Assembly: GCA_964609335.1 (NCBI GenBank) | Contig: CAZSRQ010000013.1 | Coordinates: 1-29,439 of the forward strand | DNA from: an uncultured Pseudomonadota bacterium | GTDB taxonomy: Bacteria; UBA10199; JADFYH01 | Direction of reading: 5' to 3' | Length of the DNA stretch: 29,439 nucleotides | In this document: piece after piece, positions 9,587-27,415 of the stretch | How the letters are laid out: every line of letters starts with the position of its first letter | How positions within the stretch are numbered: the stretch's first letter is position 1 | Program-made: the position numbers and the translations under genes | Notes under the pieces: generated by a model | Database searches by the model: none | Seen by the model: only the letters and a program-made list of their open reading frames with translations | What the model was told of the DNA's origin: nothing

Positions 9587-9595
9587 TCGGAAGAA

Positions 9596-9680
9596 GAATT
9601 CAGGAGACAGAAATCAGAAGATAGAATAAAAAAATTTTATTCTTCATTCTTCTGACTCCTGATTTCTGTCTCCTGAATTC
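9596..9680. repeat. Long hairpin between tolA and tolB: 22-bp perfect stem, about 41-nt AT-rich loop
   Basis: GAATTCAGGAGACAGAAATCAG (9596-9617) is the exact reverse complement of CTGATTTCTGTCTCCTGAATTC (9659-9680). The left arm extends to 9620 and the right arm carries a 7-nt CTCCTGA insertion. Confidence 0.8.
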
Positions 9681-9708
9681 TGTATTATAAAGTCATGAAA
9701 GGTCACTT

Positions 9709-14474: not shown

Positions 14475-14489
14475 AATCCAAAATTAATT

Positions 14490-14546
14490 CAGGGGGATTC
14501 CTGTTCGCCTGCTGCGAAGCACGGCGTTTGCAGGAATGACAATACT
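14490..14546. repeat. Isolated internal module of the family-B repeat (CAGGGGGATTCCTG...GCAGGAATGACAATAC)
   Basis: Matches the internal segment CAGGGGGATTC(T)CCTGCCTGCC..GGCACGGCG..GGAATGACAGTA of the elements at 21547-21715 and 24943-25104. It lacks their terminal inverted repeats. Confidence 0.5.
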
Positions 14547-14549
14547 CTT

Positions 14550-15569
14550 ATGCGTCCAAGAATTGTTTCGTTAATTGCGAGTAGTACTGAAATTGTCTGT
14601 GCGCTTGGTTTCTATGGTCATCTGGTTGGCAGATCCCACGAATGTGATTTTCCACTTTCAGTCAAAAGTCTTCCGGTTTGTACCGAACCAAAATTCAACA
14701 TCGATGGAAATAGTTATGAAATTGATCAGCGAGTGAAAGCAATCCTCCAAGAAGGGCTTTCTGTTTACCGCGTTCATGCCGATCAGCTTAAAAAATTAAA
14801 ACCCGATCTGATTGTGACCCAGGTTCAATGTGAGGTTTGCGCGGTGAGTGAGAAGGATGTCGAAGAAGCGGTTTGTCAGCTGGTCGACTCCAAGCCGAAA
14901 ATTGTTTCCTTGAATCCGAATTCATTGAAAGATCTTTGGGAGGATATCCGAAAAGTGGCAACAGCGCTGAATGTGATTCCTAAAGGGGAAGAGGTGATTG
15001 CGGATTTGAAAGCGAGGATGAGTATAATTTCTCAGAAGATACAAGAAAATTTTTCTAAAGGTGTTTCATTAGATAAATCCCCCCAGCCCCCTTTGCTAAA
15101 GGGGGAGACAGCAATACCCCCCTTTGAAAAAGGGGGGCTGGGGGGGATTTCTTCCACTCGTCCCACGGTTGCCTGCATTGAATGGATCAATCCGCTGATG
15201 TCGTGTGGAAACTGGCTTCCAGAGCTGGTTGAAATGGCGGGTGGAATCAATCTTTTTGGCGAGGCAGGAAAACATTCTCCCTGGATGACGTTTGAAGATC
15301 TGCTCCAAAAAAATCCCGATATCCTGATTGTTTTGCCCTGTGGATTTGATATTCCGAAAACGAGAGAAGAGATGCATTGGCTGACCGACAATCCCAACTG
15401 GAAAAAACTGAAAGCGGTTCAAAACAAAAAAGTTTTTTTGGCGGATGGAAATCAGTATTTCAATCGCCCGGGTCCGCGAGTTGTCGAATCGTTGGAGATC
15501 TTGGCAGAAATTTTTTATCCGACTCTTTTTAATTTCGGACATCACAAGAAAGCATGGGAAGAATGCTAG
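14550..15569 (+). CDS. Cobalamin/Fe-siderophore-type ABC substrate-binding protein (BtuF/class III SBP-like) with an in-frame repeat-derived insertion
   Basis: N-lobe motifs (RIVSLIASSTEIVCALG, KPDLIV). The inter-lobe motif RPTVACIEWINPLMSCGNWLPELVEMAGG is typical of the BtuF family. No signal peptide is evident. Codons 176-201 (KSPQPPLLKGETAIPPFEKGGLGGIS) are encoded by a palindromic repeat. Confidence 0.7.
   Translation: MRPRIVSLIASSTEIVCALGFYGHLVGRSHECDFPLSVKSLPVCTEPKFNIDGNSYEIDQRVKAILQEGLSVYRVHADQLKKLKPDLIVTQVQCEVCAVSEKDVEEAVCQLVDSKPKIVSLNPNSLKDLWEDIRKVATALNVIPKGEEVIADLKARMSIISQKIQENFSKGVSLDKSPQPPLLKGETAIPPFEKGGLGGISSTRPTVACIEWINPLMSCGNWLPELVEMAGGINLFGEAGKHSPWMTFEDLLQKNPDILIVLPCGFDIPKTREEMHWLTDNPNWKKLKAVQNKKVFLADGNQYFNRPGPRVVESLEILAEIFYPTLFNFGHHKKAWEEC
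15075..15150. repeat. Family-A palindromic element (compact 76-bp variant) inside the SBP coding sequence
   Basis: AAATCCCCCCAGCC [CCCCTTTGCTAAAGGGGG] AGACAGCAATA [CCCCCCTTTGAAAAAGGGGGG] CTGGGGGGGATTT. Two internal hairpins are enclosed by an outer inverted repeat. The CCCCCTTTGAAAAAGGGGG hairpin also occurs in the copies at 1208, 20815 and 26625. Confidence 0.75.
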
Positions 15570-20814: not shown

Positions 20815-20925
20815 TCCTCCCTTTGGAAAAGGGAGGTTAGGAGGGATTTAGTGCAACCAAACCTTAAGAAGTGCTCAACTCCTAGCACTAAATCCCCCTT
20901 AATCCCCCTTTTCCAAAGGGGGAGA
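20815..20925. repeat. Family-A palindromic element (full-length, ~110 bp)
   Basis: CCTCCCTTTGGAAAAGGGAGG-TTAGGAGGGATTTAGTGCAACC ... CCTAGCACTAAATCCCCCTTAAT-CCCCCTTTTCCAAAGGGGG. Terminal hairpins plus GGATTTAGTGC / GCACTAAATCC internal inverted repeats. Confidence 0.8.
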
Positions 20926-20978: not shown

Positions 20979-21572
20979 ATGAATCTTCAAAAATTAAATC
21001 TCAAAATTTTTATCGCAAATCCTGAAACGGTTCAGTTTGAAACTTTCATCCCGATTTTTCATCGCTGGATTCAGGAACAGAATATGAGTGATCTGTTGCT
21101 CGATGTGGCAGATTATCAACATGTGCCTTCCGGCCCAGGGATTATGCTGATCGCCCAGAATGCGAACTACAGTATTGATAATGCGCAGAACCGGTTGGGA
21201 TTTCTCTATAATCAAAAAACAGTTCTTGAAGGAAATAATCCCGATAAACTGAAAAAACTTTTTCAAACGACTTTGTTGACTTGTCAAAAGCTTGAACAAG
21301 AGGAAACTTTGAAAGGAAAGTTGAAATTTTTAACCAATGAGATGCAGTTCATTCTCAACGATCGTTTAAATGCTCCGAATACCGAAGAGACTTTTCAGAA
21401 AGTAAAAGGGGAAATTTCTTCTTTCTTGAATTCTTTTTTTGGTGAGAACAATTATTCACTTCATCGTCATTCCGACCCGCGCGAGAGATTTACGCTGGAG
21501 ATTAAAACTTCCGCCTCTTTTTCTTTGGATGAGCTCTTAAAAAAAAGTAATTACTCAGGTTATTCCAGATGA
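20979..21572 (+). CDS. Hypothetical protein (197 aa, no recognisable domain)
   Basis: Good SD (AAGGAAA) 8 nt upstream of the ATG. Coding-like composition. The last 8 codons (SNYSGYSR) and the stop codon lie inside the left terminus of the family-B repeat. Confidence 0.5.
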   Translation: MNLQKLNLKIFIANPETVQFETFIPIFHRWIQEQNMSDLLLDVADYQHVPSGPGIMLIAQNANYSIDNAQNRLGFLYNQKTVLEGNNPDKLKKLFQTTLLTCQKLEQEETLKGKLKFLTNEMQFILNDRLNAPNTEETFQKVKGEISSFLNSFFGENNYSLHRHSDPRERFTLEIKTSASFSLDELLKKSNYSGYSR

Positions 21573-21715
21573 TTGTCATCCCCGAGTGTTTTTATCGGGG
21601 ATCCCCCTACTCAAATATTGGATCAGGGGGATTCTCCTGCCTGCCTGCCGGCAAGGCACGGCGCCCAAAAGCCTACGGGAATGACAGTACTATTTTGGAT
21701 CAGCTGAGTAGTTAC
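21547..21715. repeat. Family-B palindromic element, copy 1 (~169 bp; TIR GTAATTACTCAGG / CAGCTGAGTAGTTAC)
   Basis: About 85-90% identical to 24943-25104 and in the same orientation. Internal hairpins: CCCCGAGTGTTTTTATCGGGG, ATCCCCCT...AGGGGGAT, TGTCAT...ATGACA. Confidence 0.8.
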
Positions 21716-21920
21716 AAAAAATAAATAAAATTTTTTTTATCGAGTAGAGCTGTAGTGTCCCCTCATCCCTCTTCTACCGAACGAAGAGCGTTCTTGAGTT
21801 AATTTTAAATTTTCCATCAATCAAAAGACAAATTTTGGTTGGATAAAATAAAAAGTTCTATATACTCCCATTCCATTCGAGGATTTCTAACCCAATCATT
21901 TTAACTAAAACCAAAGAAGT

Positions 21921-24924: not shown

Positions 24925-25132
24925 CACGTTACGCGATTTTTTGTAACTACTCAGGTCATTCCCAATGATTGTCATCCCCGAAGGTTTTTTCGGGGATCCC
25001 CCTACTCAACAATTGAATGAGGGGGATTCCCCTGCCTGCCGGCAAGGCACGGTGCCCAAAAGCCTGCAGGAATGACAGTAATTTTGGACGAGCTGAGTAG
25101 TTACAAAAAAATTACAAAAAATCGCGTAACGT
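24925..25132. repeat. Family-B palindromic element, copy 2, nested inside an additional outer inverted repeat
   Basis: Core 24943-25104 (GTAACTACTCAGG...GAGCTGAGTAGTTAC). It is enclosed by CACGTTACGCGATTTTTT (24925-24942) and its reverse complement AAAAAATCGCGTAACGTG (25115-25132). Starts 6 nt after the ftsY stop. Confidence 0.8.
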
Positions 25133-25243
25133 GACTTAAAAATAAAACTTTGATTCTTAAAAAAAAATTATGCTACCATCCCTCCACACATAAAAAATCC
25201 GGCGTTTTTGGTGAATCTTCACATTTTCCTTGGAGGGGGGATT

Positions 25244-26624: not shown

Positions 26625-26750
26625 ACCCCCCTTTGAAAAAGGGGGGCAGGGGGGATTTAGTGCAACTTGTGGTAGAGAAAGATCAATTTTTCAAAACTGC
26701 AAACTCTATCTAATAAATCCCCCTAATCCCCCTTTTTCAAAGGGGGAGAA
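26625..26750. repeat. Family-A palindromic element (full-length, ~125 bp)
   Basis: CCCCCCTTTGAAAAAGGGGGG-CAGGGGGGATTTAGTGCAAC ... TAATAAATCCCCCTAATCCCCCTTTTTCAAAGGGGGAG. Its right end encodes the last 8 codons and the stop of the aquaporin gene. Confidence 0.8.
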
Positions 26751-27415
26751 GGAGAAAAAAAATATCCACAACAATCTTTTTCATGAGTTGCGCGACAAAA
26801 CTGAACGGCGACGAAAGATCCGATCAAAGGGGCGGTCAAATAAATCCACCAATATTCCAAATGTCCCGAAACAATCGCCGGGGCGAGAGAACGGGCCGGA
26901 TTCATCGAAGCACCCGAGATCGGGCCGCCGATTAAGGCGGCCAGGGCAACGGTTCCGCCGATTGCCAATCCTGCCGGGATTCCTTTTTCTTTTGCACCGG
27001 TGGAAACCGATAAAATCACCAACATCAAAACAGCAGTCATTAAAATTTCCAGAAGGAACGAGGAAAAAACTCCCTTCGACGGAAATGTTCCACCGAGATC
27101 TGCTGAGCCAGGAAAGATTAAATGAAGAAGAAAACTGGCGAGAAGAGCTGCAGAACATTGGCTGAACAGATAAGGAAAAATTTGTCGAAAAGAAAAACGT
27201 CGGGCAAAATAAAAACCGATCGTGACCGCCGGATTAAAATGGGCCCCAGAAATCGGTCCGAGGGAATAAACCAGTAAAGCAATCACCGATCCAAAAACAA
27301 GCGAAACCCCCAAATGAGTCACTTTTCCCTGACCGATTTCATTGATTATAATTGCGCCAGTTCCGGAAAATACGAGCCAGAAAGTTCCAAAAAATTCTGC
27401 AAACAATTTTTTCAT
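26723..27415 (-). CDS. MIP-family channel (aquaporin/aquaglyceroporin), possibly an AqpS-like arsenite channel
   Basis: Two NPA boxes (HFNPAVT, SMNPARS). Six TM helices. 230 aa. Directly upstream of arsC on the same strand. The C-terminal PSPPLKKGD* is encoded within repeat 26625-26750. Confidence 0.85.
   Translation of the reverse strand: MKKLFAEFFGTFWLVFSGTGAIIINEIGQGKVTHLGVSLVFGSVIALLVYSLGPISGAHFNPAVTIGFYFARRFSFRQIFPYLFSQCSAALLASFLLHLIFPGSADLGGTFPSKGVFSSFLLEILMTAVLMLVILSVSTGAKEKGIPAGLAIGGTVALAALIGGPISGASMNPARSLAPAIVSGHLEYWWIYLTAPLIGSFVAVQFCRATHEKDCCGYFFSPSPPLKKGD

Follow-up and report, generated by a model that had tools for sequence, protein, structure and literature searches.

The stretch of DNA analyzed here, a 29,439-nucleotide contig (CAZSRQ010000013.1) of an uncultured Pseudomonadota bacterium, is called the window below, and it is within its 29 kb that the genome is known here. 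At positions 15075-15150 the window contains a 76-bp palindromic element, which lies inside an open reading frame (ORF) at 14550-15569 and is translated in frame with it, exactly as the original prediction, made from the sequence alone, had described. The element reads AAAT-C6-AG-(C5-TTTGCTAAA-G5)-AGACAGCAATA-(C6-TTTGAAAAA-G6)-CT-G7-ATTT and is built from two inverted copies of a hairpin module that we term H, its reverse complement being H'. Position 15075 is the start of codon 176, and the element encodes residues 176-201, with the translation KSPQPPLLKGETAIPPFEKGGLGGIS, also given as KSPQPPLLKGETAIPPFEKGGLGGI(S). The locus has the following features.

14550-15569, plus strand: host gene for a 339-aa binding protein of BtuF/ShuT fold (class III), in frame through the element, as judged from PF01497, AlphaFold, Foldseek and the ratio of nonsynonymous to synonymous substitutions (Ka/Ks).
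15022-15074, plus strand: lineage-specific stretch adjoining the element and encoding SIISQKIQENFSKGVSLD; it differs from the related contigs L002 and L214, the remainder of the gene being ~90% identical.
15075-15150, no strand: palindromic element of 76 bp, two H hairpin modules in the divergent, "inside-out" order H'-11 nt-H.
15075-15105, minus strand: left module H' (reverse complement of H), AAATCCCCCC-AG-CCCCCTTTGCTAAAGGGGG.
15106-15116, no strand: 11-nt inter-hairpin spacer AGACAGCAATA; the spacer is not conserved in other divergent doublets.
15117-15150, plus strand: right module H, CCCCCCTTTGAAAAAGGGGGG-CT-GGGGGGGATTT, an exact match to the cross-phylum pattern given below.

The hairpin core occurs eight times in the window where 0.00 occurrences are expected, and none of 100 shuffled sequences contained any match. 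Folding of the 86 nt around the element gave -28 kcal/mol as DNA and -53.4 kcal/mol as RNA, with z-scores of -5.0 and -5.4 relative to shuffles, and both hairpins of this intragenic copy are perfect. Scans of the sense strand around the element for promoters and terminators found nothing, an Rfam scan of the whole window in E-value mode returned solely meaningless sub-threshold matches to microRNA hairpins, and a Pfam scan of the element-encoded peptides gave no family.

The host protein matches Peripla_BP_2 (Pfam PF01497, E = 8e-17). Its AlphaFold model, which was run on an alignment, reached a predicted local distance difference test score (pLDDT) of 87.1 and a predicted template modelling score (pTM) of 0.85, and Foldseek matched the model to ShuT, PhuT and BtuF with target-normalised template modelling scores of ~0.8. 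By Pfam match and model, the protein has the two lobes and the single long joining helix of class III (BtuF/FhuD-type) binding proteins. In the window protein, as in its homologues, the first beta-strand already starts at residue 4, and a signal peptide is therefore absent. The neighboring genes encode BolA, SpeA and a Na+/H+ exchanger, not ATP-binding cassette (ABC) transporter components, and neither a secretion or lipoprotein signal nor an adjacent ABC permease or ATPase gene was found. The protein thus has the BtuF fold that had been predicted for it but is not a classical periplasmic binding protein. The family of "cobalamin-binding proteins" formed by its homologues (P0002-P0120) likewise has no signal peptide and no ABC partner genes, is syntenic with BolA and SpeA, and shares the invariant Cys/His motifs RSHECDFP, QCEVCAVS and PCGFD; it looks like a family of cytoplasmic BtuF-fold proteins, possibly binding a metal or a cofactor. 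The relatives of the SpeA protein are metagenome-assembled genomes (MAGs) labelled Deltaproteobacteria or Myxococcota, with identities of at most 75%.

Alignment with the best 120 homologues, most of which are 304-312 aa long, shows that the window protein contains an extra segment. Two conserved anchors are 46 aa apart in 72 of the 84 homologues in which this distance could be measured and 80 aa apart in the window protein, so the segment amounts to 34 aa compared with canonical homologues. It is missing from 114 of the 120 best homologues and from the closest orthologue (P0002), which is syntenic and 91% identical over the aligned positions. The extra loop had been placed at the lobe junction and estimated at ~25 aa; it does lie there, between the inter-lobe helix and the (R/K)PxVAC/FIEW strand, and is longer than estimated, as ENFSKGVSLD and the diverged helix end SIISQKIQ just upstream of the element are lineage-specific as well. 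This helix end differs abruptly between the window and both L002 and L214. The last ~30 nt of 15022-15074 can be aligned with the internal spacer that precedes H' in one of the intergenic copies of the window (copy 4, see below), and because of this resemblance the stretch probably arrived with the element or is the footprint of earlier events.

In the AlphaFold model, pLDDT drops below 50 solely at residues 174-198, a coil between the inter-lobe helix (143-169) and the first strand of the C-terminal lobe (206-212), which is the only disordered loop. The ORF is full length and in frame and all family-invariant residues are retained. Compared with the L002 orthologue, Ka/Ks is 0.16 over the whole gene and 0.06 in the lobe downstream of the insert, at a Ks of 0.34. 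As far as sequence and model can tell, the element is an insertion into a tolerated surface loop of a gene that is not decaying but under purifying selection, and the expectation that the fold would tolerate the insert is borne out.

The same position is occupied in other members of the family. Among the 16 closest homologues, six have 19-34 extra residues exactly where the element lies, and in six related contigs this codon position holds other palindromic repeats. Family A, the family of the window element, occupies the site in a syntenic relative (L004), where its order is reversed, H-10 nt-H'. A CCCTCTCCC...GGGAGAGGG repeat family is present in L005 and L207, and a CCCCTCCTTACAAAGGAGGGG family (family C) in L206. 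In L002 a GTAG-tagged palindrome, GTAGGGGCGCACGGGCGCGCGCCCCTAC, that resembles repetitive extragenic palindromic (REP) sequences lies in the same loop at 1002-1029 and is translated in frame as VGAHGRAPLQ, which indicates that a classical REP type can also sit inside the host gene. L214, a strain with a 98% identical SpeA, has yet another hairpin at the site, and its contig ends inside that hairpin. We read the site as a hot spot with turnover, in which insertion is repeated and loss imprecise where the fold tolerates extra peptide. Elsewhere in L004, at 2237-2329, a class I/II aminotransferase gene contains, in frame, a distinct double-hairpin family (CCCCCTCTTCAGATGAAGAGGGGG-GTA-GGGGGCGTTTGA and its inverse), and the Pfam match of the aminotransferase spans this insert.

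Four family-A copies had been noticed in the window. The three copies other than the intragenic one are indeed present, but they are 107-121 bp long and their modules are arranged the other way round, hairpin-linker-GGGGGATTTAGTGC ... GCACTAAATCCCCC-linker-hairpin, relative to which the intragenic copy is inside-out.

1210-1318, no strand: copy 1, intergenic convergent doublet of H, a 43-nt spacer and H', flanked by a peptidase_M15-like gene and a GATase gene.
20816-20922, no strand: copy 3, intergenic convergent doublet with the same arm subtypes as copy 1 but in reversed order, located between a NIR_SIR gene and the gene that follows it.
26626-26746, no strand: copy 4, intergenic convergent doublet; the final ~13 codons of the MIP gene and its stop lie in the right arm.
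26723-27415, minus strand: MIP (aquaporin-type) gene (PF00230, E = 4e-50), its C-terminal tail ...SPFEKGGLGGFIR* encoded by the H' arm of copy 4.

The genes that flank copy 3 overlap or are 10 nt apart in the relatives L004 and L005, and copy 3 is for that reason a visible insertion and evidence of mobility. The PF00230 match spans residues 2-203 of the 230 in the MIP protein, whose tail is a second coding use of family A in the window.

H is not confined to this lineage. The unit of ~33 nt, C5-6TTTGNNAAAG5-6-N2-5-G5-6ATTT, consists of a C5-6TTT/AAAG5-6 stem, a GNN triloop, a linker of 2-5 nt and a repeat of the G-arm that ends in ATTT. An exact-pattern scan of species-representative genomes found at least 120 loci with H, and the loci listed belong to Desulfobacterota, Nitrospirota, Omnitrophota, Gamma- and Betaproteobacteria, Chloroflexota, Parcubacteria, Ignavibacteria, Myxococcota, Methylomirabilota, Melainabacteria and others, with Iodobacter arcticus (CCUG 62945), Chromatium okenii (LaCa), Lysobacter (sp. 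Root916) and Pseudoxanthomonas (sp. z9) as cultured carriers; the Nitrospirales genome OY820905.2 also has H. Across the 183 H instances listed, conservation is limited to the ~33 nt and the flanks are unrelated. The stem and the G-run that follows the linker co-vary (GGGGG...GGGGG vs GGGAGG...GGAGGG). The 190 units at the 120 loci listed comprise 29 convergent, 13 divergent and 9 compact symmetric doublets and 88 apparent singletons; regular expressions under-count degenerate units. H is also found in 109 stretches of IMG/VR, only one of which has DUF559 (the gene family introduced below) nearby, and carriage of the complete element by phages is therefore unsupported as a main route.

The original prediction had called for a search for further intragenic copies, and such copies exist both in the L004 orthologue and in unrelated genes of other phyla. 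At least seven H copies, including the one in the window, lie in frame within genes with Pfam support on either side of the copy or across it. Apart from the L004 orthologue of the window gene, the hosts encode an ABC-F ATPase (L011), RecJ, with the copy inside the DHH domain (L035), an RlpA-SPOR protein (L039), a TIR/TPR protein (L040) and a multihaem cytochrome (L082). Further copies lie near the ends of genes for CcmI, a DNA methylase and a hybrid kinase. Only one of the six frames of consensus H contains a stop codon, and the encoded peptide is Pro/Gly-rich. Short-peptide searches for in-frame copies, carried out exhaustively on representatives, gave nine matches, mostly spurious ORFs over repeat arrays or CRISPR arrays. 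In the 242-aa protein P0242 the C-terminus consists of five tandem in-frame copies of the H-encoded peptide, VPPFAKGGLGGISSNPQQ, which suggests that H arrays can build repetitive protein tails.

Clustering of the ORFs at the 120 H loci listed identified one small protein that adjoins H in different phyla. This protein, ~120 aa long, is DUF559 (PF04480, E = 1e-32 to 1e-36), a Vsr-like nuclease of the PD-(D/E)xK type. In L033 (Thalassocella), L051 (Omnitrophota) and L055 (Nitrospirota) H and an inverted copy of it stand directly on either side of the DUF559 ORF, and in L033 two gene-less doublets that share subterminal sequence with the gene-bearing copy stand beside it. L068 has H copies next to truncated remnants of DUF559, together with an intact DUF559 gene that is bracketed by a different hairpin of the same design. 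Positions 5214-6281 of L068, a complete Nitrospirales chromosome, form a tandem array with a period of 274-275 nt, each unit being H plus a truncated DUF559 remnant.

In a test that was blind to the DNA, 80 metagenome loci were picked by DUF559 protein similarity alone, and 76 of them had enough flank (at least 60 nt on each side) to be judged. By the strict expression, H is present around the DUF559 ORF at 71 of these 76 loci (on both sides at 37, on one side at 34) and on neither side at five, the background rate of H being 9 regular-expression hits per 126 kb. Many of the one-sided loci have visibly degenerate H copies. H lies at median distances of 15 and 10 nt from the ORF, and the elements have a median length of 444 bp. 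Free of stop codons in 79 of the 80 cases, the ORFs are mostly intact, and the D...ExDGxxH motif is retained in 77. An association of this kind was also noted, independently, in a published survey, where DUF559 has an odds ratio of 14 for lying between inverted repeats and is among the most enriched gene families (PMC9881135). Inverted GC hairpin modules with sequences other than that of H also stand on both sides of more distant DUF559 genes (35-43% identity), those on replicons of Pseudanabaena, Deinococcus proteolyticus, Azospirillum lipoferum and Picosynechococcus PCC 7002. Around the genes of D. proteolyticus (plasmid pDEIPR03, L210 192-664) and A. lipoferum 4B (L211 119-655) the modules have the opposite polarity, with the hairpin on the gene side and the G-run extension pointing outward; to judge from these two, both module orders can bracket a DUF559 gene. 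In the open-access literature we found no description of hairpin-bounded DUF559 elements or of the 33-nt unit H, and a full-text search for the core sequence strings returned primer coincidences only.

We therefore consider it likely that the copy in the window is a mobile hairpin module of a DUF559-associated family that sits in a tolerated loop. What the data show is the insertion, its tolerance by the loop, purifying selection on the gene, the spread of H over phyla, in-frame copies in other genes and the H-DUF559-H' architecture with its gene-less derivatives; that DUF559 moves H is an inference. In the mechanism that we propose, H serves as terminal inverted repeat to a widespread selfish element, ~0.44 kb long, with a DUF559 endonuclease as its sole gene, and gene-less H doublets and single H units are scattered through many phyla in the manner of MITEs (miniature transposable elements with inverted repeats) or of REPINs, the inverted doublets of REP sequences. 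One doublet, together with ~30-50 bp of adjoining sequence, would have landed in the surface-loop DNA of the gene for a cytoplasmic BtuF-fold protein. Because five of its six frames are free of stops and its peptide is Pro/Gly-rich, H would be read through as a disordered loop of ~26 residues, and the protein stays under purifying selection. Only insertions at permissive spots would survive, which would explain why the loop is a hot spot with different hairpin families in related strains. Whether DUF559 itself mobilises H we judge to be evenly balanced. If it does, candidate mechanisms are nicking of the hairpins followed by copy-in through repair, or homing into empty doublets; classical transposition of the DDE type is unlikely because no target-site duplication was found. 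The inside-out order of the window copy may possibly derive from the junction between tandem units, and H'-spacer-H junctions do occur in tandem arrays (L033, L068, L127).

Several observations weigh against this explanation. We know of no transposase that consists of a PD-(D/E)xK nuclease alone. The flanks of 37 complete elements contain no target-site duplication, just a T...A extension of the palindrome, and none is evident at the window copies either. A tblastn search of the 29-kb window and of the 21-kb piece of L004 found no DUF559 gene, and flanking hairpins were not found at two of the six distant DUF559 genes (those of Synechocystis B12 and N. gonorrhoeae). The intragenic copy has the divergent order, which is the minority form among the doublets at the loci listed, while the family-A DUF559 genes sit in convergent doublets. 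Finally, Ka/Ks is averaged over the whole divergence from L002, and a very recent inactivating effect would escape it.

The main rival, which we regard as unlikely, takes DUF559 as a free-standing homing endonuclease gene that lands at the center of pre-existing H..H' palindromes, H itself spreading by another route such as a transposase, template switching at hairpins or gene conversion. The DUF559/Vsr clade does include the homing endonuclease of a group I intron (PMC3424549), the DUF559 gene is always in the central spacer of a convergent doublet, gene-less doublets with spacers of 10-64 nt are common, and the lack of a target-site duplication also fits homing. However, H is near-identical base for base across phyla alongside DUF559 proteins that are 55-99% identical, distant DUF559 genes carry different hairpins, and no other candidate mobiliser recurs among the 120 H loci listed. 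Since H is conserved with DUF559 and distant DUF559 genes come with other hairpins, the simplest account is that hairpin and gene travel and co-evolve as one unit.

The original prediction had left the choice between a new example of such an element family and a recently disrupted gene. The former part stands, albeit for a family that crosses phyla and is not local. That the insert is tolerated as the gene was already dispensable or is a young pseudogene seems improbable to us. The strong RNA hairpin within the ORF (-53 kcal/mol) could impede translation, and the region beside the insert has diverged abnormally fast. Neither frameshift nor decay was seen, however; the invariant residues, the low Ka/Ks of the downstream lobe and the confidently predicted fold all speak against it, and orthologues with comparable insertions are intact in five other contigs. 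The gene is intact and constrained, and both this reading and that of a native linker are unsupported.

Just as improbable, in our estimation, is the recruitment of the loop, or of the RNA or DNA hairpin, for a function as a flexible tether, a partner-binding loop or a signal for mRNA processing or attenuation. Recruitment would explain why the site is occupied repeatedly, in at least seven related contigs, and the perfection of both window hairpins is in its favor. The occupants, however, belong to repeat families that are unrelated to one another, as are the peptides they encode, which also differ in length; many close homologues have no occupant at all, the loop is predicted to be disordered, and the scan for sense-strand terminators and promoters was empty.

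We give even less credence to an ordinary REP or REPIN moved by a REP-associated tyrosine transposase (RAYT, a Y1 HUH transposase), with an incidental association with DUF559. The architecture is REPIN-like, in that a short GC-rich hairpin occurs as inverted doublets in many copies, mostly between genes, and the palindrome at the same site in L002 is of the GTAG type. The two REP superfamilies are defined by their GTAG and CGTC tags (PMC3733652), neither of which H carries, and no Y1 transposase recurs among the 120 H loci listed; these two facts make a RAYT-driven REP unlikely. H was moreover present at 71 of 76 DUF559 loci that had been picked blind to the DNA.

A mis-threading of the repeat into the gene during metagenome assembly would fit the origin of the window as a MAG contig and the break of the L214 assembly at the same spot, but it is highly improbable, as both gene halves are orthologous and in frame and independent assemblies from other samples and sources have hairpin insertions at the identical codon position (L004, L005, L206, L207). 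A native, conserved linker of 25-26 residues, for which nothing more than the in-frame position speaks, is refuted by the homologue alignment that had been proposed as a check: the closest homologue and 114 of the best 120 do without the segment, and its DNA is a member of a dispersed repeat family.

Among known systems, the Rickettsia palindromic elements (RPEs; Ogata et al. 2000, 2002, summarised in PMC10969869), which are ~100-150 bp long and confined to Rickettsia, are similar in that dispersed palindromic repeats lie in frame in unrelated housekeeping genes and add extra peptide at permissive surface positions while the host genes remain functional. The same appears to hold, from their sequences, for H in the window gene and in the genes for RecJ, ABC-F, RlpA, the cytochrome and the TIR protein. 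RPEs differ in having no known associated enzyme, whereas H is a 33-nt module of many phyla that forms the ends of a DUF559 element. The host lineage is not Rickettsia and H occurs in many other phyla, which sets H apart from the RPE families; a sequence relationship between the two is not expected.

With REP/REPIN-RAYT systems (PMC3116915, PMC3337134, PMC3733652) H shares the short GC-rich hairpins, found alone or in inverted doublets and numerous in each genome, and the association with a small nuclease gene that itself lies between inverted repeats. The inverted doublet as the replicating unit of REPINs has its counterpart in the three convergent doublets of the window. The gene is a different one, PD-(D/E)xK DUF559 (PF04480) instead of a Y1 HUH transposase, and no other gene recurs near H at the 120 loci listed. 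REPs are imperfect palindromes of 20-40 nt with a GTAG or CGTC tag, whereas the 183 H instances start with (T)C5-6TTTG and end with G5-6ATTT; REPs are also lineage-specific and mostly inherited vertically, whereas H is near-identical across phyla, and H copies are not strictly extragenic.

Bacterial MITEs are likewise non-autonomous, bounded by terminal inverted repeats, mostly intergenic and occasionally fused in frame to ORFs, and H shares its repeats with a longer gene-bearing element, the ~444-bp H-DUF559-H', as the subterminal sequence in L033 illustrates. Typical MITEs, however, derive from DDE insertion sequences and have target-site duplications, which were not seen here, and the gene-bearing relative of H encodes no known transposase, its sole ORF being DUF559/Vsr-like. 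The Vsr-like homing endonuclease I-Bth0305I (PDB 3r3p; listed with DUF559 in PMC3424549) is comparable as a small selfish gene that encodes a Vsr-like nuclease only, and DUF559 has the same predicted Vsr/PD-(D/E)xK fold with catalytic residues that appear intact (PF04480; motif in 77 of 80). Known homing endonucleases reside in phage introns or inteins or beside their target gene, whereas the elements described here are bracketed by conserved hairpin inverted repeats that multiply also without the gene.

In-frame insertions have also been reported for the enterobacterial repetitive intergenic consensus (ERIC), BOX, QMITE1 of Coxiella and the Anabaena MITEb/e (PMC10969869, PMC5896051). The statement that in-frame palindromes are rare outside Rickettsia was thus overstated, and since they are known from RPEs, ERIC, BOX, QMITE1 and the Anabaena MITEs, the window case is not new in kind; taken alone, it is a further member of the known in-frame palindromic insertions. 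The whole we rate as a REPIN/RAYT-like or MITE-like system with a PD-(D/E)xK nuclease.

Other repeats of the window are unrelated to family A. A second palindromic family with the terminal inverted repeat TTTTTTGTAACTACTCAGG... is present at 21547-21722 and 24937-25148 in copies of ~175-210 bp that are 80-91% identical, and a partial copy of it at 14477-14549 ends directly at the ATG of the binding-protein gene. Strong intergenic inverted repeats at 9595-9681 (AGAATTCAGGAGACAGAAATCAG..., 35-nt arms, 89%) and at 1951-2021 (a GTTAGGGGTCGGGGGTTAGGGGT palindrome) do not belong to family A either.

For the gene in the window, these results provide a clean case of a palindromic repeat outside Rickettsia within an intact and constrained gene, and they map a permissive loop that has been hit repeatedly, which helps in understanding how selfish DNA gives proteins extra loops. 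They also bear on annotation, as Pro/Gly-rich "PPFxKGGxGG" stretches, and many spurious ORFs built of them, derive from the repeat. Beyond the window, our results link the nearly invariant H of many phyla to one of the large nuclease families that lack an assigned function, and they suggest that a large number of DUF559 genes form the heart of very small elements, mobile or homing, that end in hairpins. We put forward, tentatively and with somewhat less than even confidence, that there is a hitherto unrecognised, phylum-spanning class of minimal selfish elements (~0.44 kb, inverted hairpins around DUF559), with H and its look-alike families as their ends, whose nuclease mobilises both itself and swarms of gene-less doublets. 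The cultured hosts of H (Iodobacter arcticus, Chromatium okenii and Lysobacter sp. Root916) make this model testable. If confirmed, it would extend the few enzymes known to drive the proliferation of repeats in bacteria by a new class of nuclease. These elements would amount to a REPIN-RAYT-like system with another nuclease fold at its base, whose derivatives would seed RPE-like in-frame loops in proteins throughout Bacteria, and the very large DUF559 family would at last have a biological role.

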